IMG/VR virus record: IMGVR_UViG_2671180724_000008
Direction: 5' to 3' (one strand)
Length of the DNA: 64,000 bases
Source: a virus
Lineage: Duplodnaviria > Heunggongvirae > Uroviricota > Caudoviricetes
The position numbers and the translations under genes were made by a program. The notes below the pieces were generated by a model. That model ran no database searches. It saw nothing but the letters and a program-made list of their open reading frames with translations, and was not told the DNA's origin. This document shows, one piece after another, positions 2,401-54,772 of the stretch. Numbering within the stretch: the first letter of the stretch is position 1; each line of letters begins with the position of its first letter.

Positions 2401-2458
2401 CCTGCTTCCGTATATATAAATAATAAGTAACTTATTAAATATATACAGAAGCAGGTCT
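2401..2458. repeat. Long hairpin element (CCTGCTTCCGTA, AT-rich loop about 35 nt, TACAGAAGCAGG) with T-run; similar copy at 49095-49153
   Basis: 12-bp stems in two related copies; loop of this copy contains the ATAAGTA..CTTAT palindrome. Confidence 0.5.
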
Positions 2459-2562
2459 TTTAAAAGACACCACCAGAACAACTCCCTTCCGTTTCCACTT
2501 CCAAAAACTGCCACCAGTCGCTATCATCCGCCCATTGTGATAAGTAAGTAACTACCTACCAG

Positions 2563-3312
2563 GTGAGCCACATGAGCCAAATCTTTTTCGACACCATCGA
2601 CAACGACCAGTACGACTTCATGACAGAGTGGAATACCGCTGTTATGGATAAGTGGGTTGCTGAAAACATTGGTTTGTCGCGTTGCAAAGACGAGGCTGAA
2701 CTCTTCGATACGAAGTGGTTTGATTACCGCGACATGCATCCTCTTATGGCCACCTGTCTGTTTACAGAGGCATACAAACGTCAGTACTCAAATATCATGC
2801 TGACGCACGGTCGAGAACACTTTGAAACAGCTCCGTTCACCACCGGGTTAAAACGCCTGCCTTATCAGGAGTTGTCGACTGCCAATAAAACGTCGCTATG
2901 GAAAGCACGCCAGTTTGCTGACCGCTATTGCTGCTCATACGACTACTTTATTTCCACCGTTCTTTCCGCAGCTGCACGACGACTGTGGGACAAGCTGCCG
3001 CGTCCGCAGCATTTGTGGCAGCCAGAACTGATTGAGATATTCGAAGATAAATTAGCCAGACGCGCAACAACCCGTCTGGATGACTCTCTGGTTAGCTTTA
3101 AGCATATGGGAGACATGCAGTTCAACCCGATTCAGGAAAGCTATTTTGAGTGGATTCTGGAGCGTTTACGCGCCATCCCCCGCAGCAAGCGCATACGCGC
3201 AATTTTCTCCGCTATCTGGCTAATGGAAATCGTTCCAGAGCGCCTTATTTCCGCCCACTTTCCAGAAGAACTGGAAGAAGCACGGCGGTTTATTGATCCC
3301 CTATCTAATTAA
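2563..3312 (+). CDS. Hypothetical protein (directly upstream of the helicase)
   Basis: 249-aa ORF; no motif recognised. Confidence 0.5.
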   Translation: MSHMSQIFFDTIDNDQYDFMTEWNTAVMDKWVAENIGLSRCKDEAELFDTKWFDYRDMHPLMATCLFTEAYKRQYSNIMLTHGREHFETAPFTTGLKRLPYQELSTANKTSLWKARQFADRYCCSYDYFISTVLSAAARRLWDKLPRPQHLWQPELIEIFEDKLARRATTRLDDSLVSFKHMGDMQFNPIQESYFEWILERLRAIPRSKRIRAIFSAIWLMEIVPERLISAHFPEELEEARRFIDPLSN

Positions 3313-3355
3313 CTAATACTAGAAAACAATTTGTTTAAAAAACAAAGGAAAGCAC

Positions 3356-4696
3356 ATGACCGAACTTTGCCATACAGGACGCGGGCTGTCCGAAGAGTTT
3401 GATGAAGATTTCCAGAACAGACTGACGGCATATTTTTGTCGTGATCACGAGTTTCTTACTCGTGCGGGAGATCTGGTTGTGCCTAGCCAATTTGCCAATG
3501 CGGCCAATGCCATATTGGTTAATATGGTTTCGGGCTATTACCGTATGTACAAGAGCGCGCCCTCTTCATCTGCAATTCTGGATATGCTTAAGCGTGCGAA
3601 ACGCGATAAGACTATCCGTGAGGAACTATTCGCCGATGTTGTTGCTGCGTTTAAGCGCATCCTTGCAGAAAAATTGTCCGATACCTCGTACATGGTTGAC
3701 CAGGTATCAACCTTCGCAAAAAGCGTAGCGTTTGATGATGCTCTGATTAAGGCTGCTGAACTGAAAGAGAAGGGCGACTTTCAGGGGGCGATGGCAATCA
3801 TGGCCAAGGTTCAGCAGATTGGATCGAATGAAGCGACCGGAATCTATGACTACTACACCTCCGCAAGTGAGCGATTGAAAGCGCGTGAATATGAGGCTTC
3901 AGAGGAGTATGTACCAAACAGTATTACAACTGGACTCCCTCTTCTCGATAGGTTGCTGTACCAAAAAGGCTGGGCAAAGCGCGAAATGGTGCTCTTCATG
4001 GGGTTCGCTAAATCCGGTAAATCGACCGCAATGGGTGAGTTTTCCATAAACGCAACGCTTGCCGGCTACAATGTTCTGTATCTCTCGCTGGAGGTTCACA
4101 CCAACATTTTGTCCGACCGCTTTGATGCAAGATTGTCGGAGACGGAAATGTCCAAGCTGGTGGAACGGCGCGATGAAGTTCATCGTAAGTTGGCAGAGTT
4201 GGGAGCCACGAAGGGGATTGGTAGTTTGTGGGTTGTTGAGCGTCCGTCAGGAAGTATGTCACCGGCCGATCTGGACCGTATGCTTAACAGTATGAAAGCC
4301 AATGGCATGGTGCCTGACATGGTTGTTGTCGACTACGCAGATTTGATGCGTGCCAGTTATGACCTTCGTGATGATCGCGCCAATATTCGTAGTATCTACA
4401 CCGATTTACGTGCTCTTTATGACAAACATAACGTTGCTGGGATCACGGCATCGCAGACAAACCGTGAAGGTGGCGCGTCAGAAGTTGCCACAATGATGCA
4501 CGCTGCCGACAACATCGAAAAAGTACGTATTGCTGACCTGGTAATAACGATCAACAAAACCGAAGAAGAAGAAGCGAAAGGAGAGGCTCGTCTCTACTTT
4601 GCTGGTTCGCGTAACCAGCAGGGAGGGATCAGCATTCGCGTTAAACAAAACCTCGAACAAATGCGCTTCATTGAGCGAATCTTAGACGTTACCTAA
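3356..4696 (+). CDS. DnaB-family replicative DNA helicase
   Basis: RecA-fold Walker A GFAKSGKST and Walker B-like MVVVDYADLM; conserved AAAGGAAAgCACATG initiation context. Confidence 0.8.
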   Translation: MTELCHTGRGLSEEFDEDFQNRLTAYFCRDHEFLTRAGDLVVPSQFANAANAILVNMVSGYYRMYKSAPSSSAILDMLKRAKRDKTIREELFADVVAAFKRILAEKLSDTSYMVDQVSTFAKSVAFDDALIKAAELKEKGDFQGAMAIMAKVQQIGSNEATGIYDYYTSASERLKAREYEASEEYVPNSITTGLPLLDRLLYQKGWAKREMVLFMGFAKSGKSTAMGEFSINATLAGYNVLYLSLEVHTNILSDRFDARLSETEMSKLVERRDEVHRKLAELGATKGIGSLWVVERPSGSMSPADLDRMLNSMKANGMVPDMVVVDYADLMRASYDLRDDRANIRSIYTDLRALYDKHNVAGITASQTNREGGASEVATMMHAADNIEKVRIADLVITINKTEEEEAKGEARLYFAGSRNQQGGISIRVKQNLEQMRFIERILDVT

Positions 4697-4701
4697 AAAA
4701 T

Positions 4702-5959: not shown

Positions 5960-5973
5960 CAAACGCCGTTAAA

Positions 5974-5994
5974 ATAAGTAGATGATTACTTATC
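5974..5994. promoter_or_regulatory. Copy of intergenic palindrome family ATAAGTA-N-TACTTATC
   Basis: One of about 15 dispersed copies, all intergenic. Confidence 0.4.
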
Positions 5995-6034
5995 TTTCTG
6001 TAAGAATACTTTCATCTGTTAGCTAGGAGTTGGT

Positions 6035-6817: not shown

Positions 6818-6872
6818 TCTCTCCGCGCGTCGTTTTTTACGCAAATAACGATAGGTAAGTACAAGATTATTT

Positions 6873-7355
6873 ATGGCGGTAGTTGTGAAAGCTGATTTGT
6901 CAAAAATCCCCTCTATTTCAGGAAATAATGGTTATTCACTTCGTTGTGAGGAAGTAAAGATAAACGGTGAGTCGGCATATTGCAGCTACTCCGTTTGCCA
7001 GCACACCATTCTTGCCTTCAAAGAAAACCGTCTTCCTCGAACTTCATTCCAGTCGTGCGCAACCACTATCAAAGCAGGCAAATGCAAGGCGTTAAAAATG
7101 ATGGTTGAAGAGATTCGTAAAGGAGAATCTCTGTATTTCGAAGATATGACCGCGCTCATTAAGGAGGTTGAAGAACGGAATAAACAAGCCAGAACTATAA
7201 AACGAAAACGTGACAGTGTAACGATTAATAGCATGGTTAAGAAGAGCACCACATCACAAACAGCGATCACTGACGTGTATGCGGCGTTGCTTGAAGAAAC
7301 AACAAAAGAAACACATGAGCAAATCGATCAACATATGGAGGCAAAACAACAATGA
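6873..7355 (+). CDS. Hypothetical protein
   Basis: 160-aa ORF; stop overlaps the ligase start. Confidence 0.45.
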   Translation: MAVVVKADLSKIPSISGNNGYSLRCEEVKINGESAYCSYSVCQHTILAFKENRLPRTSFQSCATTIKAGKCKALKMMVEEIRKGESLYFEDMTALIKEVEERNKQARTIKRKRDSVTINSMVKKSTTSQTAITDVYAALLEETTKETHEQIDQHMEAKQQ

Positions 7356-9485: not shown

Positions 9486-9494
9486 AAACATATT

Positions 9495-9516
9495 GATAAG
9501 TATTTACTTACTTATC
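9495..9516. promoter_or_regulatory. Copy of palindrome family GATAAGTAtttacttaCTTATC followed by TTTT
   Basis: Perfect 8-bp AT-rich arms. Confidence 0.4.
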
Positions 9517-9875
9517 TTTTGTGTATAAGATGACTTTGTTTTCGTTGAGACGCGACTGTTTGAACTTAAATACAAGTGCAAACGAAGAAGTCTATCTGGC
9601 AGTAGCCTAATAAGCCAAACACCAGCGAGGTCAGTTTCCAGCCTCGTTACCGAAATGGGACACACTGAGCGAGTGTGATTGCAGAACGCAGGAGGGAACA
9701 TTCATGTTCCCTCCGATGAAGTAACAGAATGGGCGGTTGGTATATTTTCAACTCCATATGACTCCCGGATTCTTAGCCACTGACCGCCCATCCTGTTACG
9801 TCATTTTGTTCAATTATGTCGTTTATACTGGGTTAAAAAGCGGCGACGTAGCCCGGCTGGTATGGTTAGCCAGCA

Positions 9876-10263: not shown

Positions 10264-10339
10264 GATGGTGTAGCTCAGCGGTAGAGCAGTTGGCTGTTAA
10301 CCAACTGGTCGGTGGTTCGAATCCACCCACCATCGCCAA
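10264..10339 (+). tRNA. tRNA-Asn (anticodon GUU)
   Basis: Cloverleaf by hand: acceptor GATGGTG/CACCATC, anticodon stem GTTGG/CCAAC with loop CTGTTAA, T-arm GGTGG-TTCGAAT-CCACC, 3' CCA. Confidence 0.8.
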
Positions 10340-10343
10340 TTTA

Positions 10344-10430
10344 GGGGAGTTAGTCCGTAGAGGTAGCGGTGTAGACTGTAAATCTACTGTCATTGCGACT
10401 CGGGTGGTTCGACTCCATCACTCCCCACCA
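10344..10430 (+). tRNA. tRNA-Tyr (anticodon GUA), long variable arm
   Basis: Acceptor GGGGAGT/ACTCCCC, anticodon stem GTAGA/TCTAC with loop CTGTAAA, T-loop TTCGACT, 3' CCA. Confidence 0.7.
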
Positions 10431-10434
10431 AATT

Positions 10435-10510
10435 GCCGGTTTAGCTCAGTTGGTAGAGCGCCTGCCTTGTAAGCAGGATGTCAGCGGTTCGTGTCCGTTA
10501 ACCGGCACCA
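10435..10510 (+). tRNA. tRNA-Thr (anticodon UGU)
   Basis: Acceptor GCCGGTT/AACCGGC, D-arm GCTC-AGTTGGTA-GAGC, anticodon loop CTTGTAA, T-arm AGCGG-TTCGTGT-CCGTT, 3' CCA. Confidence 0.8.
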
Positions 10511-12854: not shown

Positions 12855-12888
12855 ACAAATGATAGGTGTGTACATATCTATCATTTGT
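12855..12888. promoter_or_regulatory. Palindrome ACAAATGATAG-N12-CTATCATTTGT in promoter region of the minus-strand gene
   Basis: Perfect 11-bp inverted repeat; half-site related to the GATAAGTA family. Confidence 0.45.
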
Positions 12889-13211: not shown

Positions 13212-13349
13212 TTCCCACCAAACTCACTCCCGTTTCCCTTAAAATTCAAAAAACAACGTCAAAATGATTCCATACCTACTATGTATGGAATCATTCGTGA
13301 AAATGAGTTACTTTTACTCTTGATCCTATAAGAATCTATGCCTAATATA

Positions 13350-13365
13350 CTGTTTACTTATACAG
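13350..13365. promoter_or_regulatory. LexA (SOS) box CTGTTTACTTATACAG, about 29 bp upstream of the recombinase start
   Basis: Matches CTGT-N8-ACAG with AT-rich spacer. Confidence 0.6.
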
Positions 13366-13393
13366 TGAATCGGCGTAACTCGGTGATTGTCAT

Positions 13394-14497
13394 ATGAAAA
13401 ATAGCTTTGACAGAGCACGCGCTGCGGAGAACACCTCAAAAGAGGCGATTGAGTATCTCGAAAGAGCATCTCAAATGCAGGCCGTTATGATCTCGCAGGT
13501 TAGCAATGACATGAGATTCTCGGACGCATTCATGTTATTCACTCGCTTATCTCTGCTTATAACCAGACGTCGGCCAGAGATCGCTGTTCATTGTATTTTG
13601 ATACATGTTTTGCCGCACATTGCTGATGTAAAAGTAAGTGACATTAATAGGTTCATGGTGAACCAACTGGTAAACCCACTAATACTGGATGGCAAAATTG
13701 TTATGGGCCGCCGCGTTTTCTCTCTGATGAAGCAGTTCCTTAGCTGGTGCGCCTTCCAGGGGATGATAGACGTGTCACCGTTAAACGATATGTCACTAAA
13801 CAAAGTTGCCGGTGGCGCAAAGCCCACACCTCGCGAGCGGAAGCTGACCGACGCAGAGGTATGGGTGTTCTGGAATATATGGGACTACTTCAATGTGTGC
13901 GCTGGTACAAAATGGGCGGCCAGGCTGTGTCTTGTATCAGCAAGACGACCTGACGAAGTACTGCGGGCTAAAAAAAGTGAGTTCAATCTTAAGCGTGGGG
14001 TTTGGAATCAAGGCAAGAGAAACAAGTCAGCACGTGAGCATTCGCTGCCTTTAAGCACATTAATGCGCACATGCATTGAAGAGTTGTTCGAATACGGTAA
14101 AGACAGCCAGTGGCTCGTGCCTTCGAATAAAAAAATCGGGAAAGACCTTCCTATGTCTAAAGTGGCAATAGCCCAGGCATTACGTCGTATTCTGGAACGA
14201 CCAGAACTGATGGAGCTTGAGCCATTTACACCCCGAGATTTGCGCCGTACTGCGCGTAGTTACTTCCCAGCATTAGGCATAAGCCAGGAGGTATCACGCA
14301 AAATCATGAACCACAGTCTTGAGGGGATAGATCGGGTCTACGACCGGCACGATTATATGGACGAGATGCGAGACGCCTTAGAAAGTTTCTCGACGTACAT
14401 CGCATCAATCGTAGAGCAACCGGATTTAGACGAAATTGACCACAAATTCAAGGGAGATCGTCTATCAACAGAGCTTATTCGTGTAAATTTTTCATAG
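13394..14497 (+). CDS. Tyrosine recombinase (phage integrase family); integration versus dimer-resolution role unresolved
   Basis: C-terminal motifs RDLRRTARSY and HSLEG...RVYDRHDY resembling P4-type integrase R/H-x-x-R/Y signature, recalled from memory; no obvious N-terminal arm-binding domain. Confidence 0.65.
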   Translation: MKNSFDRARAAENTSKEAIEYLERASQMQAVMISQVSNDMRFSDAFMLFTRLSLLITRRRPEIAVHCILIHVLPHIADVKVSDINRFMVNQLVNPLILDGKIVMGRRVFSLMKQFLSWCAFQGMIDVSPLNDMSLNKVAGGAKPTPRERKLTDAEVWVFWNIWDYFNVCAGTKWAARLCLVSARRPDEVLRAKKSEFNLKRGVWNQGKRNKSAREHSLPLSTLMRTCIEELFEYGKDSQWLVPSNKKIGKDLPMSKVAIAQALRRILERPELMELEPFTPRDLRRTARSYFPALGISQEVSRKIMNHSLEGIDRVYDRHDYMDEMRDALESFSTYIASIVEQPDLDEIDHKFKGDRLSTELIRVNFS

Positions 14498-14878
14498 AGA
14501 CTTTATGGCCTCAACAACCTTTTGTGATGCGCCTTTCTCTTTACCGAATCGCTCGTTATATGCAGCAAGAACCTGTTTTTCGTCCTCGTTAAGAGGAGCG
14601 GTGCCTTCTTTGTATAAAAATGCTGCGAGTTCAGGTTGGCGTTCTTCCAGCACCATCATCATAAGACGACTTGGCTCAATACCCAGCGCCAGCGCCAGCG
14701 GACGAACCTTATCGATAGGCAAAGGAATTTTGCCACTTTTAATTAAAGAAAGGTTGTTGGCATTTTTATAACCAATAAGTCTGGCTATTTGGGCCTGACT
14801 CATAGGTGAGGATTCAATCAGCCCTGCGATAAAAGCAGCATAGCGACTTTCTATAAATTCAATCTTGTTGTCAGACAT
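14492..14878 (-). CDS. XRE-family helix-turn-helix transcriptional regulator
   Basis: HTH region SQAQIARLIGYKNANNLSLIKSG; divergent from downstream plus-strand genes. Confidence 0.7.
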   Translation of the reverse strand: MSDNKIEFIESRYAAFIAGLIESSPMSQAQIARLIGYKNANNLSLIKSGKIPLPIDKVRPLALALGIEPSRLMMMVLEERQPELAAFLYKEGTAPLNEDEKQVLAAYNERFGKEKGASQKVVEAIKSL

Positions 14879-15129
14879 TGTTACAACCTTTGCGCGTTTA
14901 ATTCTCTCTGGTAAGTGCTTACCGATATTACATCAAAGGTTAGGGTTGTAAAGCTATTATCATTTTTTTCGGCAGGCACTTGTAAGACCGAGCAAAGGTC
15001 CATGCATGGAGAAAAACTAGCCCAAAATAGGTAAGAAAATTAACTTGCATCTGATATAGATGTATTCAGTATTGATACAAATTTTAGTAGTATTCCTTAC
15101 CATAGTATAAGTTAGAATGGATTGATTGA

Positions 15130-15342
15130 ATGAAAACCACTATTTCCAGCCTAATCGCTCTTGAGATCGGACACGTACAGAAATTAGCTGATGAGTGTGT
15201 AGCTGACATCCTCACCGATCTACCGAATGAGCAGATTCAGGTTGGTGTGAATGACACAACTGGCTTTATATTCGAACTTAACAACAAACGCTTCACGCTT
15301 CTCAATACCGGCTCCGGGTCTTTAGCCGTCAGAATCTGTTAA
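15130..15342 (+). CDS. Small hypothetical protein
   Basis: 70-aa ORF divergent from the XRE regulator. Confidence 0.4.
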   Translation: MKTTISSLIALEIGHVQKLADECVADILTDLPNEQIQVGVNDTTGFIFELNNKRFTLLNTGSGSLAVRIC

Positions 15343-17565: not shown

Positions 17566-17587
17566 GATAAGTAACTACTTATGATAG
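17566..17587. promoter_or_regulatory. Copy of palindrome family GATAAGTAACTACTTAT
   Basis: Intergenic. Confidence 0.4.
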
Positions 17588-17644
17588 TTAATGATATATT
17601 TATATAAGAAGTTGAACGCTCATTAGAGAACAAAGGAAAAACGC

Positions 17645-23136: not shown

Positions 23137-23253
23137 TTTTTGATAGATAATAAGTAAGTACTGATCTATCATTTAACAGCTCGAAAGAGCCACGAATGAA
23201 CGAAAGCCCAACGCGCATAGCGCCATCGGCCAAATCACAACAAGGAGAAACAC

Positions 23254-26652: not shown

Positions 26653-26665
26653 ATCTCTTGAAAAT

Positions 26666-30686: not shown

Positions 30687-30725
30687 GTTTACAGTAAAAT
30701 TTATATAAGTTAGTATCTACCTATC

Positions 30726-31449: not shown

Positions 31450-31496
31450 ATGCAAACTGACTGCGGCTCGTTCCGCAGTCATATTTCATAGTCGTC

Positions 31497-32029
31497 ACCG
31501 CTGACAGCATACACAATCAACTACCGCTGATAGCATATCGAGAGTCTATCTTACCGCTCACAGCATACTTTACTCGATTTTTTACCGCTGACAGCATACT
31601 TAAGACATTGCATGAATAATGTGTACCGGTATGGGTATAACCAGAACAAAATTACCGCTGGCAGCATACGAAGGTCTGACATATACCATTAATTACCGCT
31701 GATAGCATATCCAAACAAAAATTCCTCAATAAAACACCGCTGACAGCATACGTTCTATCAGGGAGCAGCAGGCAATAAATGCCTTTCACTACAAGCAATC
31801 AGCGCAATAGCAATAGAATGTTAGTGAGCGCAAACCTATATGGAATGCACTCTTCGAGGTTAGTAACCACTGGGGAGGTATGACAGAGCATTGAGTGGTG
31901 ATAGATGATTTACCGCTCACAGCATACGTTCATCTCACTATACCGCTGGTAGCATATCTTTAACCGTTCACAGCATACTTTTCAGAAAAATAGCCGCTGA
32001 TAGCATACATTTCACCGCTGACAGCATAT
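31497..32029. repeat. Iteron array downstream of repA (incA-like): about 12 copies of 17-bp TACCGCTGACAGCATAC in two clusters
   Basis: Direct imperfect repeats at roughly 31497, 31522, 31553, 31583, 31653, 31694, 31735, 31911, 31941, 31962, 31991, 32013; irregular spacing. Confidence 0.85.
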
Positions 32030-33123: not shown

Positions 33124-33141
33124 GTGGACACCTTTGTCATT

Positions 33142-33245
33142 CAACCGCTGACAGCATACTTGATTTGCCGCTGGCAGCATACAAAAAACAGTTGGCAGCA
33201 TACGGCGAACCGTTGACAGACTATCAATTACCGCTGACAGCATAC
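33142..33245. repeat. Iteron array upstream of repA (origin/incC-like): about 5 copies
   Basis: Copies at about 33142, 33166, 33190, 33209, 33229, between repA start and GATC cluster. Confidence 0.8.
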
Positions 33246-34089: not shown

Positions 34090-34343
34090 CCCTCCAGATC
34101 GTATATTGGCGTAGATAGAATCTACGCCCCCTCAAAATAGCTCTCATAGCGTTCTACAGTGATCCTGTCTTATTTTTAGTCATACAGGCAAGCAAAGTTG
34201 CGCCACAACAAATAGGTATATACTTACTTATAAATTTTGTATATTAAGACGCTCGTTTCATTCCTAACATACCGTTATGCATAGTTGTTTACCTTCTCAT
34301 TGCTCTTAAAATTTGTATCAAAATAACCACAAAGGAAAAACAC

Positions 34344-37575: not shown

Positions 37576-38308
37576 ATTAAGCCGCTCGCAGTTTTTGCAG
37601 GTATTTGCAGTGATGCAGTCGATAAAACTGATCAATGGGCATACTTCCAATAGTGCGGCTCCACGTATTCTGTGGGGCAGCAATAATATTGACAAAGCAC
37701 AATTCGCCCCGTTGCTTGGTCTAATATCCGAGACACCATTGATGCAAAGTTTGGAATCACTACCGTCTGGATGTATTGCGCCGATCTTGATTAATCCTTT
37801 TGTTGAGGGGGGATATCTTCCCAACGTCGGACCTGGGTTTATCGCAACCCATGAAACTGAAGATCTTAACATTAATAGCGAAGGGTTCTTTGGGGCAATG
37901 GATGCGCATCTCTGTATGGCTTTCACGAACCTTATTCGACTTGCCAATAAGCGGGCGGATAGTTTGGCATCGCCAGGTGATGCTTTTACTGGTTTCCTTA
38001 TCCAAAGGAGGGATAAAAAGTACAGTGCGGACAAACTACAGTTTGTTGGTAAGTATGGAGAAATGGTAGAAATCGAACTTCAGCTCCCTCATGTTTTAGC
38101 AAACGATAGTGCAGACAGTCGGAGGCTGTTGGGCATCATGCGTCATTTCATAGCAAGTGGCGTTAAACATGCCGTAGATAAACGTGTCACGCAGGAAAAT
38201 GAGTATTCAGACTTTGCAAGCTATCCCCAACCAACGTTGCAAACGGCAATAGTAGCCAATTCGTTGGAGGCGAGATTATTGGAAAACCCTATATGGGGAA
38301 CATGGTAA
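37565..38308 (+). CDS. Hypothetical protein
   Basis: 247-aa ORF overlapping SbcC-like stop. Confidence 0.5.
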   Translation: MSFKLSRSQFLQVFAVMQSIKLINGHTSNSAAPRILWGSNNIDKAQFAPLLGLISETPLMQSLESLPSGCIAPILINPFVEGGYLPNVGPGFIATHETEDLNINSEGFFGAMDAHLCMAFTNLIRLANKRADSLASPGDAFTGFLIQRRDKKYSADKLQFVGKYGEMVEIELQLPHVLANDSADSRRLLGIMRHFIASGVKHAVDKRVTQENEYSDFASYPQPTLQTAIVANSLEARLLENPIWGTW

Positions 38309-38887: not shown

Positions 38888-38893
38888 TTTCAT

Positions 38894-38917
38894 TGATAGG
38901 TAAGTGCTTATCTATTA
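38894..38917. promoter_or_regulatory. Copy of palindrome family TGATAGGTAAGTGCTTATCTA
   Basis: Intergenic upstream of nrdA. Confidence 0.4.
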
Positions 38918-38960
38918 ACATGGGCCACTATATTTAGTGGCCCTCTTTATTTGGTGATAC

Positions 38961-41381: not shown

Positions 41382-42524
41382 ATGTCATATTCAACGTTCC
41401 GTTTGGGTGCTAATGATGCAACCAAAGAGCCTATGTTCCTCGGACAATCTGTCAACGTGGCACGTTACGATCAGCAAAAATACCGTGATTTTGAAAAGTT
41501 GATTGAACGTCAATTGTCTTTCTTCTGGCGGCCGGAAGAAGTTGATATTTCGAGCGATCGCATCGACTTCAATACGAAGCTGCGGGACCACGAACGCCAC
41601 ATTTTCCTGAGTAATCTCCGTTATCAAACGTTGCTCGATTCAGTTCAGGGACGTAGCCCAAATGCAACGCTGCTGCCGCTTATCTCTATTCCTGAACTGG
41701 AAACGTGGGTTGAAACGTGGTCTTTCTCTGAGACTATCCATAGCCGTAGCTACACCCACATTATTCGTGGCATGGTGGACGATCCGAGCATTGTTTTTGA
41801 CGGTATTGTTACGGATGAAGAAATCATCAACCGAGCGATCAGTATCTCTGCTGAATATGACAGGCTTTATGGGATGACATGCGAGCGCCAGTCGTTAGGT
41901 GAGAAGGAGTTTGAACGTCTGTACGTAAATGAATATGGCTGGGAGCCATACCCTTTGCACCGTCAGCTTTTCCGCACGTTGGTGTCCATTAATGCGCTTG
42001 AGGCGATCCGTTTCTATGTAAGTTTTGCATGTACGTTTGCCTTTGGCGAACGGAAGTTGCTTGAGGGTAACACCAAAATTATGCGCTTTATTGCCCGTGA
42101 TGAAGCTCTGCATTGCGAAGGAACTGAACGCATGATCCGCTTCATGCGTACCGGTCGAGAAGGTTTATTGTGGAAAGAGATTGCTGCTGATGAAGAAAAC
42201 GTCATTTACGACACCATGAAATCAGTCGCCGAACAAGAAATGAACTGGGCAGACTATCTCTTCAAAGACGGTTCGATGATTGGTTTAAACGCGGATATTC
42301 TCAAAACCTATGTAAAATACCGCACCAATCTGGCTATGAATCGTCTTGGCCTGAAGGCTTTATTTCCAGAAGTTACCACTGATCCGCTGGTCTGGATGAA
42401 CAAGTGGTTGTTAACCGACACACTGCAAATTGCACCACAAGAGGCAGAGCAAAGCACATATCTGGTAGGTCAGATCGATTCTACCGTGGATAAGGCTTCT
42501 CTAAGCCAGTTTGCAGACCTGTAA
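41382..42524 (+). CDS. nrdB: Ribonucleotide reductase small subunit (NrdB)
   Basis: Ferritin-like di-iron protein directly after nrdA; start set at 41382 by AAAAGGAAAAACACATG context. Confidence 0.85.
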
Positions 42525-42601
42525 ACCGATACAAAGCATTATGTGGCCTGGCAACGCTGGGCCACAATGGATCACAAGAATTAAGAAGGAACAAAACTAG
42601 C

Positions 42602-43471
42602 ATGAACTTTACCAAACTGACTGACCACCTGAAACTTGCCACCGATCGACTCATTGGATTTAAGCCAGAACCATATGAGTTGCATGAAGGTCATGGTGTA
42701 GCTACTGAAAGTATTTACAAGATGGTCGATCAGTTTCATGAACTCTTCCAGCATCCGAGACGCGTTATGCCGACACCAGAGCTGCTTCGTCTCCGTGCAA
42801 GCCTGATTCATGAAGAAGCTGTAGTGGAAGGTATTCCAGCCGCAATGAATGGGGATATTGAGCAACTGCTGGATGCAATGGCCGACTTTTTATACGTTGG
42901 TGTTGGTACGATGGTCGCCATCAAAGGTGGTATTTCTACCGGCATGACCTATTACACGCAGGAACAGAGCATTGATCGCTTTATGCAGACAATTTTTGTG
43001 CCTGGTAACACTGTTTTCGATGATATGGCAATGCCATTTCAGGAAGCTCGTGAGGCGTCATGTATGCTCGAAGAGCTGGCAGATAAACTTGAGAACAAGA
43101 CTGTTAAGGATTCTGAGCTGATTCAGGAACTGCGCCGTGTAATGAACAAAATCTATGTGGCGTGCATGATGACCTATCGACTGGCTGATTTCCTCGGTAT
43201 CAATGTCGTCGAGCTGGTTGGCGAAATTCATCGGTCCAACATGACAAAATTATGGCCTGCAGATGCCGAAGAGCGTCGCCATGCTGTGGCCAACTGCAAA
43301 TACGACTCTTCTGACCTGGGATTTCGCCATGCTGATGGCACCGATAAGATGATCGGTTTTCGAATTTCCGATGGAAAGATTCTGAAGTCTCCAACCTATA
43401 GTGATGTCGATTTATCCTCCTTTGTTGAGCAAGCTAAAGCCTCAGCAATGTACGGAATGATCAAAAAATAA
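42602..43471 (+). CDS. Hypothetical protein, possibly MazG-like nucleotide pyrophosphohydrolase
   Basis: Weak match to MazG EExxE...D pattern (LIHEEAVVEG ... DAMADFLYVGVG). Confidence 0.3.
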   Translation: MNFTKLTDHLKLATDRLIGFKPEPYELHEGHGVATESIYKMVDQFHELFQHPRRVMPTPELLRLRASLIHEEAVVEGIPAAMNGDIEQLLDAMADFLYVGVGTMVAIKGGISTGMTYYTQEQSIDRFMQTIFVPGNTVFDDMAMPFQEAREASCMLEELADKLENKTVKDSELIQELRRVMNKIYVACMMTYRLADFLGINVVELVGEIHRSNMTKLWPADAEERRHAVANCKYDSSDLGFRHADGTDKMIGFRISDGKILKSPTYSDVDLSSFVEQAKASAMYGMIKK

Positions 43472-43540
43472 TTGTAGGTAGTTATCTATCTGTGTATATT
43501 GCATTGGCGCGTTAAATTTCTGAAACAACTATTCGTTTTT

Positions 43541-43566
43541 GGTGGCCTATGGCCACCATTTTTTTA
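43541..43566 (+). terminator. Rho-independent terminator (GGTGGCC-tat-GGCCACC then TTTTTTT)
   Basis: Hairpin plus T-run. Confidence 0.75.
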
Positions 43567-43642
43567 TCTATCTGGTCTTGTTCGCTCAATAAATGTAAAC
43601 TCACATAATGAATAAGTAGTTACTTATCTTTGTGAGGTTTTT

Positions 43643-48418: not shown

Positions 48419-48477
48419 ATTGCCATACATAAAATCAAATGCAAAAATAGGTAATCACTTACCTATCGAGAAAGAAG

Positions 48478-49071: not shown

Positions 49072-49094
49072 TTTGTTCTGGCGAGTGTAATTAA

Positions 49095-49153
49095 CCTGCT
49101 TCTGTAAATAAATAACTACATATTAATTATTAATATACGGAAGCAGGCTGTTT
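49095..49153. repeat. Long hairpin element (CCTGCTTCTGTA, AT-rich loop, TACGGAAGCAGG); second copy of the 2401-2458 element
   Basis: Near-identical 12-bp stems. Confidence 0.5.
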
Positions 49154-49256: not shown

Positions 49257-49487
49257 ATGTCATACCCGACCAATGTTGTTGCGCTCGTAGAGAGCGATTT
49301 TCTGGCTAAGGCTCGTGAAATGATGAAAGATCGCGAGCAGGCTTTCAACTTGTACGAATGGGCAATTAAGTGCTTGCATCTTGGGGAGCATCGCGAACTT
49401 GTTGAACAGCTTTTAGGTGAGTTGATCAACGAGGTGTTTGCCTTGAATGTTCAACTACATGGTCGAGAAAATAATCAATCGAAATGA
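49257..49487 (+). CDS. Small hypothetical protein
   Basis: 76-aa ORF. Confidence 0.4.
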   Translation: MSYPTNVVALVESDFLAKAREMMKDREQAFNLYEWAIKCLHLGEHRELVEQLLGELINEVFALNVQLHGRENNQSK

Positions 49488-50069
49488 TAGATAAGTACAA
49501 ACTATTCATAAGATGAATTGTAAGTGCTAAGATCTGATAGTTTCCAGTCATAGACTGGAGACTCGACCTGATGGGTGGGGGTAAGCGTCACTGGCGTCAG
49601 GTTTAAAAAAGCTCACTACCAGCGTAGAACCGGTGCCGTTTAGGTGTCGGGGAAGGGGGAACCAAAGTGAGCAGAGACAAGGGTCACTTTATGATTGTCG
49701 AGTCTGGGGTGTTTCGAGAGGTTGAATCCAGTACTCCCCTTCATAAAGTGTGGGAAGATCTCGGTTCTGGGGTGCTGTCATCCATAACTTCCCAAGTCTA
49801 AGCTGGCAGTAGACTTAGACCATAGCTTTTCAGGTTATGAAACGACCAGGTTGGTGAGGAATTTTATACTCACCTCCCTGGGAGAGTATTACCTGAAAAG
49901 ACAACCTCTCACTTCGTTCGAGGTGAACTTCACTCACTTCGTTCGTTCAGTTCAGGTTTATAAAAACCTGTACTGGGAAGTAATTTGTTTATTTTAATAA
50001 TTATTACACGCACGCGTGTGCGCACGCGCGAGGAAAAAAATAGGCGCGGCGCTTGATTCAGGAGTTTAT
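49488..50069. other. ORF-free structured region (about 0.57 kb) upstream of rnhA with hairpins, short direct repeats and a 25-nt alternating purine-pyrimidine tract
   Basis: No plus-strand ORF of 60 aa or more; hairpin CCAGTC-ata-GACTGG; repeats CACTTCGTTCG x2 and TCTGGGGTG x2; tract ACACGCACGCGTGTGCGCACGCGCG at about 50008-50032. Confidence 0.5.
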
Positions 50070-50660
50070 ATGACGTCGAAGACACCAGCCCGGTCGCAAG
50101 CAAAAACTCGCAAAAAAGACAAAAACAAAAATTCTCCCCGCACCAATCCCACAACGCCTGTCGTAGAGTTCAATCCCCAGCTTAAAACCGTGAAAATCTT
50201 CAGTGATGGCTCTTGCCTTAAAAATCCGGGTGGCCCGGGCGGTTACGGTATAGTTCTCCAGTATCGTGGTGAGGAACGCGAGTTCTCAGATGGTTTTCAT
50301 AGCACCACCAATAACCGCATGGAGATGATGGGGGCACTTATCGGGCTGGAGCGTTTGAAATATCCATGCAACGTTATTTTGCACTCTGATAGCCAGTATC
50401 TGAAAAACGGCATGACACAGTGGATGAAATGGTGGAAACGCAATGGATGGATGACTTCTGACAAAAAACCGGTAAAGAATGTTGATCTGTGGAAGCGTCT
50501 GGATGAGGCCGCAAGTCGACATAATGTTCGCTGGAAGTGGGTTAAAGGTCACGCCGGGCATCGTGAAAATGAAATATGTGATCGACTCGCGAAGATCGCA
50601 GCTTTTTCAGCAGCAGATATGCCTCACAAGAAAGATATTGGTTTTGTTTATAACAATTAG
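50070..50660 (+). CDS. rnhA: Ribonuclease HI with basic N-terminal extension
   Basis: Near-colinear match to E. coli RnhA motifs [35 protein letters not shown]; start set at 50070 (AGGAG RBS). Confidence 0.9.
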
Positions 50661-50808
50661 TAAGTAAGTATTTACCTATTATTTTAAATCATGTATCTTA
50701 TCGGCGTCAGGATGACAATGTGTCGGTAAGACACAGTTCCAGGATGGAACGAGAAAGGCGGCTGGCAATCGCCAGCCGCAACTCTTTCTGACACTGGATG
50801 GAGTCCAC

Positions 50809-52178: not shown

Positions 52179-52181
52179 TGA

Positions 52182-52884: not shown

Positions 52885-52902
52885 TACTGCACCAGTCGAC
52901 AG

Positions 52903-52926
52903 GGGGCGAAAGCCCCCATTTTTACG
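52903..52926 (+). terminator. Rho-independent terminator (GGGGGC-gaaa-GCCCCC then ATTTTT)
   Basis: GC stem with GNRA-like loop plus T-run. Confidence 0.75.
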
Positions 52927-53025
52927 CCTTAAATCTGCTGTAACGCCTATGAATGCAGCTTTTATGCCTTTTCAAGTTTGCGATAATTACACCAATAAGA
53001 AAACAAATTATTTAATGGTGTAATT

Positions 53026-54711
53026 ATGAATACAGCCCTTTCCATCATCGACGATGCCAGCTCAAACACGGCTATCGACTATCGTCAGGAAATGAATGTC
53101 ATCCACGAAATCGTGGCCGAGTGCGAGAAAGAGATCGCCTTCATGTATCAGGTACACGACTTCGTTTATGGCGACGAACGCCACAACATGATTAATCGCC
53201 TGCTGCGACTAAACCATCGACCAGATGAAGATCGCTCGCGTTTAAATCGAGGTTGGTTGGATAAAGTCGATCTGGAATGGGTGAAACAGAATATTTGGGC
53301 CGAGTACTGGAGGAAGGTCACGGACATGACTAACGTTTTGCTGATCATGCCAGCTTCCCGTCGAGATGAGTGGCGCGAGCAGTTTATAGAGGGCAAACAG
53401 GAAGTCATCAAAACTGACAGAACCGGCTACCAGATGAAAGTTAAAGAGTTCGTTGGTGTACCGGAGTTCAAAGCAGAAACGGTCATACCCACGATGCTTA
53501 ATTTGCTGAATGACAGGCACAAATATCTCTCTGAGCGCGTGTATGGCTTGTTTAAGGCGCTGAGTCCTGCGCACAAGACAAATAAGACAAACGGTTTCAG
53601 CGAGCGGCTGATAATCGCTGACTGCATTTCTGATTTCTGGCGGGACAGCGTTAGCGTGAACTATCGCAAAGAGGACTACATCGACGATCTGCGTGTCTTG
53701 CTTCATTTCTTCGCGCACAAAGAATTTATTACCATCAACCGCACTGCTGAGGTGCTATCAGCTGCGTATAGGGCAAACGACTGCCAGACCGGTGACTGGA
53801 TGAACGTCGATGGAAATCTGATGCGCGTGAAGATGTTCAAGAACGGCAACGTTCACTTTGAAATACATCCTGACGTGGCCTGGAAGTTGAATGAGGTGCT
53901 GGCTTACAGTATGCCTGCTGCAATCCCCGCGCCATGCCGCACTGCGCCAAAAACACGGGCACCAAAGCAGTTCGGGTTAATCCAGAAGACGATCTCCGTG
54001 CCGGTTCGCACTGCGCTTCGTGACGGGCGATTGAGCAAAGACAAAGGCGTATGGTACTTCTCTGATTCAGCTCTCCAGAAGTCGCAGGTGGAAGAGCTTG
54101 AGCGCACACTGAGCTTCATTGGCGGCGTGCAGGAGAAAAAGCACTGGCAGTTCCCGTATGACATCGGCCATACGCTAAATACGATTGTGGCTACCGGTTT
54201 AATACCGGATACAAAATCACACCAGTTCTACCCTACCCCACGCTTGATTGCTGAGTACGTTGCCAGAGCCACTGAATTGAAGCCTGGTGAGAAGCTGCTG
54301 GAGCCTCAAGCCGGACGTGGGGATCTTCTGGCCTATATTAACGCCGATCTGGAAGATGTTACCTGCATAGAAATCGCACCTCTCTTCGCTGATATCCTGC
54401 GTGGAAAAGGGTATACGAACACGATTTGCTGCGACTTCATAAAGTGGTCTGAGGACAACGCAGGTTATCAGTTCGACAAAATCGTTATGAACCCGCCGTA
54501 CTCGCTTGGTCGTCATAGAGAGCACACGATGGCTGCGCTGGGGCATCTGAAAGTCGGCGGGCGTCTTGTAGCAGTATTGCCGGGCACTGCGCCAATACTG
54601 GACTGGATGACGATGGATAATTACGTTTATGCCAGAGGGAAGTCGTTTACCAACGAGTTTGAAGACACAGGGATCACAGTCAGCGTATACGTTTTCAAAC
54701 GCGTTAAATGA
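53026..54711 (+). CDS. Two-domain protein: about 400-aa N-terminal region of unknown function fused to C-terminal N6-adenine/N4-cytosine-type DNA methyltransferase domain
   Basis: C-terminal motifs FYPTP, EPQAGRGDL (AdoMet binding) and NPPYS (catalytic). Confidence 0.7.
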   Translation: MNTALSIIDDASSNTAIDYRQEMNVIHEIVAECEKEIAFMYQVHDFVYGDERHNMINRLLRLNHRPDEDRSRLNRGWLDKVDLEWVKQNIWAEYWRKVTDMTNVLLIMPASRRDEWREQFIEGKQEVIKTDRTGYQMKVKEFVGVPEFKAETVIPTMLNLLNDRHKYLSERVYGLFKALSPAHKTNKTNGFSERLIIADCISDFWRDSVSVNYRKEDYIDDLRVLLHFFAHKEFITINRTAEVLSAAYRANDCQTGDWMNVDGNLMRVKMFKNGNVHFEIHPDVAWKLNEVLAYSMPAAIPAPCRTAPKTRAPKQFGLIQKTISVPVRTALRDGRLSKDKGVWYFSDSALQKSQVEELERTLSFIGGVQEKKHWQFPYDIGHTLNTIVATGLIPDTKSHQFYPTPRLIAEYVARATELKPGEKLLEPQAGRGDLLAYINADLEDVTCIEIAPLFADILRGKGYTNTICCDFIKWSEDNAGYQFDKIVMNPPYSLGRHREHTMAALGHLKVGGRLVAVLPGTAPILDWMTMDNYVYARGKSFTNEFEDTGITVSVYVFKRVK

Positions 54712-54772
54712 TAGGTAAATACTTACTTAATTTGTGTAAGAATGTAGTAACTAAACGATAAGAGAAAAACAC

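Follow-up and report, generated by a model that had tools for sequence, protein, structure and literature searches.

Dispersed intergenic palindromes as putative operators in an SSU5-like phage-plasmid

Several described systems place many copies of a short site under one or two regulators. In phage P1, a single repressor, C1, acts at many scattered operators over the promoters of separate lytic operons, and the repressor gene is itself controlled. P1 operators are 17 bp long and asymmetric, and C1 is not an XRE protein. The stretch of DNA analysed here (the window, 64,000 nucleotides) is part of an SSU5-like E. coli phage-plasmid; like P1, this is an enterobacterial phage-plasmid of ~100 kb. 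Its dispersed sites are unrelated in sequence to the P1 operators, are palindromes and are more numerous (27–32); they also occur in structural-gene gaps and beside terminators, and the role of a repressor here is putative. The stoperators of cluster A mycobacteriophages (L5 gp71) resemble them in number (~25–35 copies in both) and in lying in short intergenic gaps of early and late operons; one stoperator is the true operator, the others being thought to stop prophage read-through. Stoperators are 13–14 bp long, asymmetric and oriented with transcription, so that the symmetric palindromes lack their defining feature.

The RK2 backbone is likewise coordinated by one or two regulators, KorA and KorB, through a dozen or more palindromic operators at or near many promoters. 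KorB is a ParB-family CTPase acting at a distance, whereas in the present element the candidate regulator is a small XRE protein, and the ParB-like genes are not expressed above background while the element is a plasmid. TetR operators from many phyla are identical in sequence to the core of the present palindromes, including a TTGACA-n-palindrome-AAT layout; no TetR gene was found in the element. The standard E. coli binding site (SBS) of the TetR-family protein SlmA is AAGTAAGTGAGCGCTCACTTACGT (PMC7468209), with either purine accepted at one position (PMC3020112). It is solely at this position that the family core GTAAGTAAGYRCTTACTTAC differs from it, and the 20-bp core from the extended SBS (PMC3020112, PMC7468209). 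Chromosomal SBS lie mostly in coding sequence, whereas the sites described here are intergenic.

Sequence and distribution of the palindromes

A preliminary description had listed 16 positions of a dispersed palindrome family, and the element is present at all of them; sites at 2535, 6846 and 49103 and a core-only site at 14910–14923 were added. The palindrome is AT-rich and 22–30 bp long, with the half-site aaaTGATARGTAAGT (outer edge to centre) and the core GTAAGT/ACTTAC; the N2 and N6 spacings of the 8-mers noted earlier are two registers of this single palindrome. In enteric sites the two TA steps are the most conserved bases. T-runs do follow the right arms as reported, but they are mirrored by A-runs 5' of the left arms and are thus the outer part of the palindrome rather than U-tracts.

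The window contains 19–20 copies where ~0.1–0.15 would be expected. GATAAGTA occurs 10 times in the window against an expectation of 1.55 (none of 100 shuffles reached 10), and ATAAGTAA, the top intergenic 8-mer by enrichment, has 11 copies in 5.9 kb of gaps versus 2 in 57 kb of coding sequence. A palindromic weight matrix found 19 window sites versus 0.15 in dinucleotide shuffles, a frequency above background, although this count is partly circular because the matrix was trained on the window and SSU5 sites and so on sites that it counts. The reported restriction to gaps also largely holds: 18 of the 19 matrix sites lie mostly inside intergenic DNA (6.3 kb, ~10% of the window). The sites are listed below, with no strand assigned.

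2411–2440: A-type palindrome, atypical; score 17.9; tip of the GC-clamped inverted repeat 2401–2455
2535–2564: A-type palindrome; score 22.6; immediately 5' of the RBS and start codon of gene 2563–3312
5969–5998: A-type palindrome; score 25.4; extended -10 TGTAAGAAT 3–4 nt downstream
6846–6875: A-type palindrome; score 17.9; overlaps the start of gene 6873–7355
9491–9520: A-type palindrome with perfect 8-mer arms; score 34.1; followed by TGTGTATAAG (extended -10-like)
12857–12886: related palindrome AAATGATAGGTGTGTACATATCTATCATTT; score 28.9; in the gap shared by two divergent genes (Pfam assignments: putative abortive-infection protein, glutaredoxin); overlaps plus-strand TGTACA-16-TAAAAT and promoter-like minus-strand sites
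17566–17608: A-type palindrome GATAAGTAACTACTTATG and an overlapping weak second site (second register, score 14.6); followed by TGATATATT (extended -10-like), upstream of a cobS-like gene
23145–23174: A-type palindrome; score 31.9; upstream of the SSB gene; overlaps TAGATA-17-TATCAT (promoter scan)
26659–26688: A-type palindrome; fills the spacer and -10 of TTGAAA-17-TATCAT (promoter scan)
30700–30729: A-type palindrome; overlaps TTTATA-16-TATCAT and the ATG of a 59-aa gene
34207–34236: A-type palindrome; score 29.8; followed by TTTTGTATATT (extended -10-like); upstream of an SbcD-like gene
38891–38920: A-type palindrome; overlaps TTGATA-17-TAACAT; upstream of nrdA
43465–43494: weaker A-type palindrome; score 16.3; at the stop codon of gene 42602–43471; followed by TGTGTATATT, with a strong terminator 45 nt on
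43603–43632: A-type palindrome; score 25.5; immediately 5' of the thymidylate synthase RBS
48442–48471: A-type palindrome; score 27.9; begins within the -10 of TTGCCA-17-AAAAAT (with TG) and ends 6 nt 5' of the RBS of a methyltransferase gene
49103–49132: A-like palindrome, atypical; score 23.2; tip of a second GC-clamped inverted repeat, 49093–49147
49482–49511: A-type site with a good left and a degenerate right arm; score 23.8; in a 586-bp gap
50655–50684: A-type palindrome; score 33.5; at the stop codon of the RNase H gene
54706–54735: A-type palindrome; score 32.0; at the stop codon of gene 53026–54711; followed by TGTGTAAGAAT (extended -10-like)

What sets sites 2411 and 49103 apart is that they form the AT-rich tips of two long GC-clamped inverted repeats, 2401–2455 and its twin 49093–49147, each folding at -23.9 kcal/mol (z = -7 for 2401–2455).

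A set of 5,426 complete E. coli genomes gave 640 consensus matches; every one is on a plasmid of ~100–113 kb, and none on the chromosomes of this set. Across 80 related viral loci there are ~2 sites per 10 kb, and conservation extends from SSU5 to Rhizobium at 27–32 sites per genome: 28 in SSU5 (Salmonella), 27 each in PhiR41_1 and Cyrano, and 32, against 0.2 expected, in the Rhizobium plasmid pRlX6 (58.5% GC). Plasmids of the family from Sinorhizobium, Methylobacterium and Cupriavidus also keep the motif, which belongs to the element and not to the host. Individual sites are conserved as well. In SSU5, 38173 and 67770 share the layouts of sites 5969 and 38891, and orthologs of sites 9491, 34207, 50655 and 54706 are found at 41768, 63075 (followed by TGTCATAAT), 79899 (the best-scoring site found, 40.8) and 84173 (near-identical, including the -10). 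Site 17566 has an orthologous counterpart at about 8500 in many related loci, and the block CTTGAAAATATATAAGTACTTACTTATCATT at site 26659 is kept in 26 distinct orthologous gaps.

Placement at promoters and a candidate repressor

About a third of the sites overlap recognisable promoters, and about half are without a convincing promoter nearby. In the promoter scan, six window sites overlap plus-strand -35/-10 pairs (26658, 23144, 30700, 38893, 12869 and 48420); the pair at 26658, directly after a strong terminator, is the best plus-strand sigma70-like promoter match in the window. Extended -10 elements lie 3' of sites 5969, 9491, 17566, 34207 and 54706, and site 5969 (forward-strand promoter score 9) would span about -42 to -20 of its promoter. 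Promoter scores of at least 9 were obtained at 15 of 47 sites on the sense strand versus 6 of 47 on the antisense strand. In pRlX6, ~9 sites lie 1–9 nt 3' of a conserved -10 (gCTATAA) and 4–7 fill the spacer of TTGCAA-[site]-TACAAT. Repressors act at such positions: within sigma70 spacers, around the -35 of promoters with an extended -10, or just past the -10. The earlier suggestion of a promoter element is right in that many sites overlap sigma70-like promoters and that the outer arm of some supplies the -10 (TATCAT), but the best-conserved stretch of the palindrome falls between the two hexamers or past the -10, at positions whose sequence RNA polymerase does not read. Several sites are immediately 5' of a terminator, where a repressor seems redundant; the predicted start site of the 38891 promoter is inside the 5' arm of the next terminator (38922–38943, -17.8 kcal/mol).

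The features relevant to a regulator are the following.

14492–14878, minus strand: encodes an XRE-type HTH repressor of 128 aa (homolog of CYRAN_45), the proposed palindrome binder
14910–14923, no strand assigned: core palindrome GGTAAGTGCTTACC, one base 3' of the -10 of the repressor promoter
15130–15342, plus strand: 70-aa divergent gene in a cro-like position next to the repressor gene; presumed immunity region

The product of 14492–14878 has a weak HTH_19 match and a predicted structure with an XRE/Cro/C-protein fold. CYRAN_45 is annotated as a putative repressor and is expressed in lysogens (96 versus a background of 9.8 in published RNA-seq). The gene accompanies the motif in 42 of 43 family loci; in Enterobacterales its homologs are found only on contigs of ~100–116 kb, and pRlX6 encodes another (E = 1e-10). 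The 70-aa gene adjoins it in 39 of 43 loci, and the homolog of this neighbour, CYRAN_46, is ~90-fold induced in macrophage samples. On the minus strand the repressor promoter reads TTTACA-16-TAATAT-c-GGTAAGCACTTACC, with the core palindrome directly past the -10. Of 57 distinct upstream regions, taken from homologs at 57–100% identity, 53 carry this site, GGTAAG(C/T)ACTTACC, unchanged between variable flanks, and 14910–14923 is proposed as a putative autoregulatory operator. The canonical site is absent from the Rhizobium homolog's own promoter. SSU5 and one further locus (L064) are missing the repressor gene and retain full site sets, which implies either recent loss or a site role independent of the repressor. 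In a clade whose repressor is 50–53% identical, the recognition helix differs (NANNLSNIKTGR versus NANNLSLIKSGK), and so do the half-sites: TARGTAGG/TARGTAGT has 23 copies versus 4 of TARGTAAG, compared with 12 TARGTAAG and no TARGTAGG in the main clade. Such lineage covariation is not specific to the XRE repressor, as any element-encoded binder would give it.

We favour, with moderate confidence, the reading that the palindromes are putative operators of a dimeric element-encoded regulator, most likely the 128-aa XRE-type repressor; we infer that this protein binds them and that binding represses. Of the functions suggested earlier, a regulon-wide operator is thus preferred, on the absence of arm covariation, the promoter-core positions and the invariant core in the promoter of a conserved repressor. 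The repressor would sit on the sites while the element is a plasmid (lysogeny), blocking initiation wherever a site lies in a spacer or -10, around the -35 of a promoter with an extended -10, or just past the -10. Sites between genes with no obvious promoter might serve as roadblocks or insulators together with adjacent terminators, and by binding the core site in the promoter of its gene the repressor would limit its own synthesis. If this is true, one regulator controls many promoters at once, through ~20 gaps in the window and ~27–32 sites per genome.

Alternative readings of the palindromes

The least probable of the alternatives is that the sites act in RNA, as weak mRNA-end hairpins for processing, stabilisation or leaky termination. 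In favour, they are sense-strand features of the gaps between genes, frequently directly 3' of a stop codon; folding is for some of them stronger than in shuffled sequences (z about -3 to -4); and site-bearing gaps coincide with expression steps. However, no compensatory changes between arms were found among enteric and Rhizobium sites; A–C mismatches are frequent, and arm-to-arm pairing equals the prediction from independent half-site conservation (z = -0.05 enteric, +0.11 Rhizobium), that is, chance given column composition. Both arms conserve the same bases, with an A-run as the mirror image of the T-run, and 13 of the 32 Rhizobium sites have central bases that are not complementary. An Rfam search gave no match at the palindromes, and ordinary sites fold as RNA at just -3.6 to -8.3 kcal/mol versus -17.8 for a neighbouring true terminator, which agrees with the earlier view that they are too weak for terminators. 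Absent covariation and weak folding point to a protein-binding DNA site rather than a hairpin or terminator; the covariation result already disfavours an RNA reading, including the RNA processing signal considered earlier. Among protein readings, the sites could be positive-control elements akin to T4 MotA boxes or P1 Lpa sites, marking middle or late rather than repressed promoters, at which a lytic-cycle regulator recruits or remodels host RNA polymerase in the absence of a -35. Sites 5969, 9491, 34207 and 54706 do occupy the place of a missing -35 upstream of extended -10 elements, every module including the structural genes carries sites, SSU5 retains all of them without the XRE repressor, and partial induction raises genes downstream of some. 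Yet we judge such a role unlikely: activators need a fixed position, whereas here the site may be in the spacer, at the -35, past the -10 or at the RBS; sites past the -10 and over the start site, in pRlX6 and at the repressor promoter, are incompatible with activation; the induction-raised sites 26659 and 30700 already have good -35/-10 hexamers; and a search for an activator candidate found none.

An intriguing minority reading, which we consider improbable, has the sites bound by a host TetR-family protein (in E. coli, SlmA), as a host repressor or as a coupling of copy number to cell division. Besides the resemblance of the cores, the same palindrome occupies the promoter spacer beside a ~216-aa TetR gene at 62 of 112 loci spread across highly diverse bacteria, and the window sites include one exact and five one-mismatch SlmA 12-mers; the whole window has seven one-mismatch 12-mers and a sole exact one, at 14910–14923, against expectations of 1.7 and 0.2. 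A 9-bp half-site could, however, match an operator family by chance, and most enteric sites, taken singly, depart from the 12-mer; what they conserve best is the pair of TA steps rather than the G's needed by SlmA; GTAGG in one clade breaks a critical SlmA position. Exact 12-mers are fewer in enteric members (1–3) than in the Rhizobium member (7), and the motif persists in Rhizobium, Sinorhizobium, Methylobacterium and Cupriavidus plasmids although, to our knowledge, alphaproteobacterial hosts have no SlmA; the location of chromosomal SlmA sites, mostly within genes, also differs from that of the intergenic palindromes. We give still less credence to a loading role like that of KorB or Noc sites, in which the palindromes would recruit a ParB-like protein of the element, or another of its DNA-organising proteins, in partition, condensation or packaging. 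Dispersed palindromes are targets of ParB-family proteins. From Rhizobium to E. coli, the element family has genes for two ParB-like proteins by the terminase genes, and one site is in the promoter of these ParB-like genes. They are, however, at background in lysogens (5 and 9.5), the sites are tied to promoter cores rather than randomly spread, the ParA locus of the window has a different upstream motif, and we know of no parS, NBS or OB site that the palindrome resembles. The partition-related role once suggested is further opposed by the location of these genes, silent in lysogens, outside the window while the sites are genome-wide.

Expression steps at site-bearing gaps in Cyrano

Published RNA-seq of the close relative Cyrano was used to compute steps (delta log2) across gene junctions. 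The mean absolute step is 1.94 at gaps with sites versus 0.93 at other junctions (p = 0.005), but p = 0.07 when the controls are only motif-less gaps of at least 40 bp. Expression rises where the site has a good promoter and drops where a terminator follows it. It falls by 6 and 2.5 log2 units at the gaps matching sites 2535 and 6846, and is higher in the gene downstream of site 5969 (+2.4 log2) and in the genes downstream of sites 26659 (+3.6 log2, partial induction) and 30700 (+3.65 log2). CYRAN_34, downstream of a site, is moderately expressed in lysogens (44), a point against repression by the palindromes. CYRAN_81, a small gene downstream of site 49482, shows a rise of 5.2 log2.

Form, number and distribution of the palindromes

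Over a 7-kb stretch, the window shares 96-97% identity with the E. coli phage-plasmids CMS-2020a, PhiR41_1 and Cyrano, and 81% with the Salmonella phage SSU5. By collinearity with PhiR41_1, the window is the plasmid-maintenance, replication, recombination and nucleotide-metabolism region. Nearly all of its genes are on the plus strand; they include those for ParA, a helicase, a primase, a ligase, an integrase, DNA polymerase III alpha, SSB and a RecA-like protein, as well as RepA, SbcCD, RNR, thymidylate synthase and DHFR, and many share the start context AAGGAAAACACATG. Phage-plasmids of the SSU5 type are common in E. coli, Salmonella, Klebsiella and Yersinia (pHCM2, pMT1-related) and carry resistance genes. 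Three tRNAs are the only Rfam matches in the window. The tRNA and replication features are as follows.

10264-10507: three consecutive tRNA genes (Asn, Thr and Ser according to the annotation of Cyrano)
32029-33243, minus strand: repA gene
31491-32028 and 33138-33245: iteron ACCGCTGACAGCATA, present in at least 14 copies on both sides of repA (eleven downstream of the gene, three or more at the 5' end) in an incA/incC layout like that of P1
33243-33445: gap upstream of repA with GATC-rich repeats and the DnaA-box-like TGTGGATAT

The preliminary description had reported at least 15 AT-rich palindromes in intergenic gaps. The element is present at every position listed there and exceeds background, GATAAGTA occurring in 10 copies where 1.55 are expected. 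The most enriched intergenic 8-mer, ATAAGTAA, is found 11 times in 5.9 kb of gaps versus twice in 57 kb of coding sequence, and the N2 and N6 spacings of the 8-mer arms are registers of one longer palindrome with an internal 4-bp period. Because of this periodicity, an unconstrained EM motif search on the SSU5 gaps mixed the registers; it was replaced by a symmetric half-site model. The half-site obtained, aaaTGATARGTAAGT towards the centre, has its information peaks at two TA steps, and the model finds 19 sites in the window versus 0.15 in shuffles. Since the matrix was trained on the sites that it counts, the k-mer tests serve as independent evidence. Eighteen of the 19 model sites lie mostly within the 6.3 kb (9.8%) of intergenic DNA, as had been claimed. 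Four sites are additional to the earlier list (2535, 6846, 49103 and the core-only site 14910-14923). The T-runs described after the arms do exist, but they are mirrored by an A-rich flank and are therefore part of the palindrome, not a separate feature. Beyond the 30-bp palindrome the information is near zero and the flanks are not shared, which led us to reject a mobile repeat (REP/MITE) or a promoter-stem-loop cassette.

The motif is conserved in related genomes at 27-32 copies per genome (28 in SSU5, 27 each in PhiR41_1 and Cyrano), and in SSU5 and PhiR41_1 the sites extend into the structural-gene module, outside the window. In 80 related viral loci (polymerase identity 79-100%) there are about two sites per 10 kb. 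When the 30-mer consensus was compared with 5,426 complete E. coli genomes, 640 of 640 matches were on plasmids of ~100-113 kb and none was on a chromosome (BLAST; matches shorter than ~17 nt escape it). A host regulon (CRP, Fur, LexA or NarL-like half-sites) was rejected on this lack of chromosomal copies, with the same ~17-nt limit. Scanning viral contigs for the exact pattern brought up further loci, with 57-65% GC, that carry several GTAAGTAAGYRCTTACTTAC cores in gene gaps and have no nucleotide similarity to SSU5; these are phage-plasmids of Rhizobium, Sinorhizobium, Methylobacterium, Shinella and Cupriavidus. Plasmid pRlX6 of Rhizobium beringeri, which is complete (119 kb, 58.5% GC), has 32 sites versus 0.2 expected, and 53 protein families are common to it and the enteric members. 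The palindromes are thus present in enteric, Rhizobium and other genomes of the family and are therefore an old, conserved feature of it as a whole; conservation from Rhizobium to E. coli means that the control logic of this phage-plasmid family is ancient.

Long GC-clamped inverted repeats (CCTGCTTCCGTATATATAAATA...TATTTATATACGGAAGCAGG; -23.9 kcal/mol, z = -7) with an A-like palindrome at the tip were also observed, at 2401-2455 and 49093-49147 of the window. They recur in SSU5 (33460, 78300), PhiR41_1 (13443, 45590, 75125) and pRlX6 (73350-73425), and both position and design are conserved between the E. coli and Rhizobium elements; they may serve as an origin, a packaging signal or a bidirectional terminator.

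Position relative to promoters, terminators and transcripts

Sigma70-like -35/-10 pairs are rarer than in shuffles (20 vs 35.1, 23 vs 29.6 and 15 vs 28.3 per 20 kb). Six of the plus-strand matches in the consensus scan overlap palindromes, though palindromes make up ~1% of the sequence, and the best plus-strand match (26658, TTGAAA-17-TATCAT) is among these six. Overlap with predicted promoters is clear at ~11-12 of 20 window sites, at the promoter of the repressor gene and at 13-16 of 32 sites in pRlX6; approximately half of the sites are without a convincing promoter. The position of the palindrome within the promoter region varies.

26659: palindrome in the promoter spacer, its outer arm being the -10; the gap contains a strong terminator and then the block CTTGAAAATATATAAGTACTTACTTATCATT, conserved in 26 distinct orthologous sequences
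5969, 9491, 17566, 34207 and 54706: extended -10 (TGTAAGAAT, TGTATAAG, TGATATATT) a few bases past the palindrome, which therefore stands at the place of the -35
48442 and the promoter of the repressor gene (discussed below): site beginning in or directly after the -10
38891: predicted promoter TTGATA-17-TAACAT, whose start would fall in the 5' arm of the next terminator

The layout with the palindrome followed by an extended -10 is kept in the SSU5 orthologs. At 38891, the coordinates suggest that upstream transcripts would end at the terminator, while those from the site's own promoter would be unable to form the hairpin. In pRlX6, about nine sites are located 1-9 nt after a conserved -10 (gCTATAA) and just upstream of the RBS, and 4-7 sites in the structural region occupy the spacer of TTGCAA-[site]-TACAAT promoters. 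A promoter score of at least 9 is reached on the sense strand of 15 of 47 sites versus the antisense strand of 6 of 47, although the gap between the mean scores (7.7 vs 7.1) is modest. The palindrome covers or adjoins the core promoter at no fixed place, and in some cases it covers the start site; this variability is compatible with a repressor but not with an activator.

Adjacent plus-strand genes were compared in Cyrano, a 95% identical relative, using gene-level data from macrophage 6-h samples, in which the element is partly induced. The mean |delta log2| is 1.94 at junctions with a site (n = 21) versus 0.93 at junctions with neither this motif nor a second one described below (n = 52, P = 0.005); for motif-less gaps of at least 40 bp (n = 15) it is 1.09 (P = 0.07 vs site junctions). 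Expression rises at the equivalents of 26659 (+3.6), 30700 (+3.65), 5969 (+2.4) and 49482 (+5.2) and at a tail-gene site (+2.5). It falls after the capsid gene (-3.0) and after tail gene M (-1.9), where the site is followed by a terminator, and also where an expressed maintenance gene is followed by a silent lytic gene (-6.0, -2.5 and -2.4). At the resolution of gene-level data from a 95% identical relative, the sites are related to transcript boundaries, and the refuting condition set in the preliminary description, the lack of such a relationship, does not hold.

Two further arrangements were noted. At 43465-43565, a palindrome with an extended -10 (TGTGTATATT) is followed ~45 nt on by a strong terminator (43540-43558 plus T7), downstream of which are a second palindrome and then the thymidylate synthase gene; the arrangement might represent a small RNA, an attenuator or a short leader. 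A second motif, AAGA-AAACAAnTTGTTT-AA, is likewise dispersed. It directly follows a -10-like hexamer (e.g. GATAAT), usually downstream of a terminator, and lies 10-25 nt upstream of the RBS of parA, nrdB, the helicase gene, the cobT-like gene and many small accessory genes. The motif has the look of another promoter-plus-operator family, one that would have a binder of its own.

394, 3324, 15409, 27817, 41339, 51558, 52287, 53001 and 55909: 13-mers of the second motif in the window (also present at 80-95 kb of SSU5)

Nature of the binding partner

An operator, a promoter element, an RNA processing signal and a partition signal had all been proposed for the palindromes. RNA and DNA readings were compared by scoring arm complementarity against shuffles that preserve column composition, in 47 enteric and 32 Rhizobium sites. 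Complementary arm positions are no more frequent than expected, either in the enteric set (322 vs 322.2, z = -0.05) or in the Rhizobium set (237 vs 236.6, z = +0.11). A-C mismatches occur at chance frequency at the variable R/Y position, and the central pair is non-complementary in 13 of the 32 pRlX6 sites. The folding energies of the sites as RNA are -3.6 to -8.3 kcal/mol, in line with the earlier remark that they are too weak for classical terminators; a real terminator, two bases after site 38891, has -17.8 kcal/mol. Since pairing is at chance level and folding is weak, each arm is conserved for its own sequence. As judged from the sequences, such conservation is typical of a DNA site bound by a symmetric protein dimer. 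An RNA hairpin acting in processing or stability was rejected, compensatory changes being absent and no Rfam match falling at the sites, and so was an intrinsic terminator, given the weak folding, the A-rich mirror of the T-rich flank and the fact that the terminator scan missed the palindromes.

Most likely, the family consists of operators of a regulator encoded by the phage-plasmid, with an XRE-type repressor encoded in the window as the binder.

14492-14878, minus strand: gene for the putative 128-aa repressor; the integrase gene is adjacent and a 70-aa gene divergent

The protein has a weak HTH_19 match, and in its structural model (mean pLDDT 75.5) the N-terminal domain can be superposed on C-proteins, 434 Cro, lambda repressor and SaPI Stl. 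In Cyrano the homolog, CYRAN_45, carries the annotation putative repressor; in the LF82 lysogen, CYRAN_45 is expressed at 96 units versus a background of 9.8, and the lytic genes, including two ParB-like genes, are at background (PMC9928086 S1 Table). Because these genes are silent in lysogens, a ParB-like binder (parS/KorB-type), whose genes lie outside the window, is disfavoured. Homologs of the repressor are confined to Enterobacterales contigs of ~100-116 kb and pRlX6 (E = 1e-10), and the gene is present in 42 of the 43 family loci having enough flank. Its own promoter reads TTTACA-16-TAATAT-c-GGTAAGCACTTACC, and the palindrome there is invariant in those 53 upstream regions, out of 57 distinct ones, that belong to homologs with 57-100% identity, while neighbouring bases vary. 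The clade that has diverged most (50-53% identity) has NANNLSNIKTGR in place of NANNLSLIKSGK as predicted recognition helix and, as preferred half-site, TARGTAGG/TARGTAGT in place of TARGTAAG. However, this lineage covariation would be expected for any element-encoded binder, SSU5 and locus L064 keep the sites and do not have the gene, and the promoter of the Rhizobium homolog is without a canonical site. The other annotated 'transcriptional regulator' (PhiR41_1 37192-37710, SSU5_121) has no match in pRlX6.

We do not think that SlmA or a TetR protein is the main binder, in spite of a striking likeness. SlmA is the nucleoid-occlusion protein of E. coli and belongs to the TetR family; the alphaproteobacterial hosts are not known to have it, yet plasmids of Rhizobium, Sinorhizobium and Methylobacterium retain the motif. 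In the 12-bp SlmA palindrome GTRAGYRCTYAC, G1, T2, A4 and G5 are critical, and the 12-bp site GTGAGTACTCAC may have A or G at position 3 and C or T at position 6 (PMC3020112); the standard extended site is AAGTAAGTGAGCGCTCACTTACGT (PMC7468209). The family consensus agrees with the 12-bp palindrome. The sole difference between the family core and AAGTAAGTGAGCGCTCACTTACGT is at a tolerant position, and SlmA-like sites (six in the window with at most one mismatch to the 12-mer) have ~8x chromosomal density. Among the ~20 window sites, though, the 12-mer is exact in one, has one mismatch in five and at least two in the remainder; exact 12-mers number 1-3 per enteric genome versus 7 in pRlX6, and the best-conserved enteric bases differ from those that SlmA needs most. 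A scan for RTAAGTAAGYRCTTACTTAY in one genome per bacterial species gave >120 perfect matches in very diverse phyla, beside a gene for a TetR-family repressor of ~216 aa in 62 of 112 loci. The palindrome in these loci is located between TTGACA and the AAT completing TACAAT; RTAAGTAAGYRCTTACTTAY, being placed beside a TetR gene and within this promoter layout, is therefore a TetR operator in those bacteria. A profile built from the 62 TetR neighbours has no match in the window and nothing significant in the ORFs of PhiR41_1, SSU5 and pRlX6 (best E = 0.27, a run with filters off included), genomes in which no TetR protein is annotated either. Furthermore, the half-site is 9 bp long and operator families are very numerous, so a coincidental match to one of them is not remote. 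It is very improbable that the palindromes are functional SlmA sites, alongside or in place of phage operators. If they were, lytic promoters would be silenced at low copy number by the host's nucleoid-occlusion protein, and the surge of sites on replication would titrate SlmA off the promoters or activate it cell-wide, blocking division. A host protein would thereby couple copy number to cytokinesis and to the lysis-lysogeny switch; in non-enteric hosts its part would fall to a related TetR protein. The likeness was unexpected, and a functional match would make this the first mobile element exploiting nucleoid occlusion.

RTAAGTAAGYRCTTACTTAY is, in its own right, a very widespread TetR operator with sequence in common with the SlmA site. 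The TetR loci (L207-L326) are from Acidobacteriota (many of them Pyrinomonadaceae), Bifidobacterium, Deinococcus, Clostridia, Planctomycetota and others, often with HlyD- or TolC-type efflux genes on the opposite side.

Proposed operator function and the repressor region

As operators of an element-encoded repressor, the palindromes would act at positions on or next to the promoter of most lytic transcription units, and also at some unit boundaries. In kind they resemble the dispersed operators of P1 C1, and there is a looser likeness to mycobacteriophage stoperators and the RK2 Kor regulon; the family described here differs from all three in its long palindrome, its own sequence and its likeness to SlmA and TetR operators. 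Cluster A stoperators, in addition, are asymmetric and in one orientation, whereas the present sites are two-fold symmetric, both arms fitting one half-site matrix. An integron attC idea was dropped, nothing relevant being found in the paper that mentions SSU5. Our literature search found no account of lysis-lysogeny control in SSU5-type phage-plasmids and no description of the palindrome family, one possibly relevant 2026 preprint aside. One 22-30 bp site at most transcription-unit boundaries together with a named candidate repressor amounts to a testable regulon map, which indicates promoter locations, targets for mutation and a protein to purify.

Comparison of SSU5 41776-42525 with window 13394-15342 shows that SSU5 is without the integrase, repressor and cro-like module present in 42 of 43 relatives, which fits its isolation as a plaque-forming phage; its 28 palindromes are kept. 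Two LexA-box-like sequences, TACTGT-N8-ACAGT, were also observed.

13348-13367: upstream of the integrase gene, whose 3' end overlaps that of the convergent repressor gene
61630-61649: upstream of the gene for an S24-peptidase (UmuD/LexA-like)

SOS-driven transcription of the integrase gene into the repressor gene could be part of induction. The Cyrano homologs of the integrase and S24-peptidase genes are up 25- to 30-fold in the macrophage samples.
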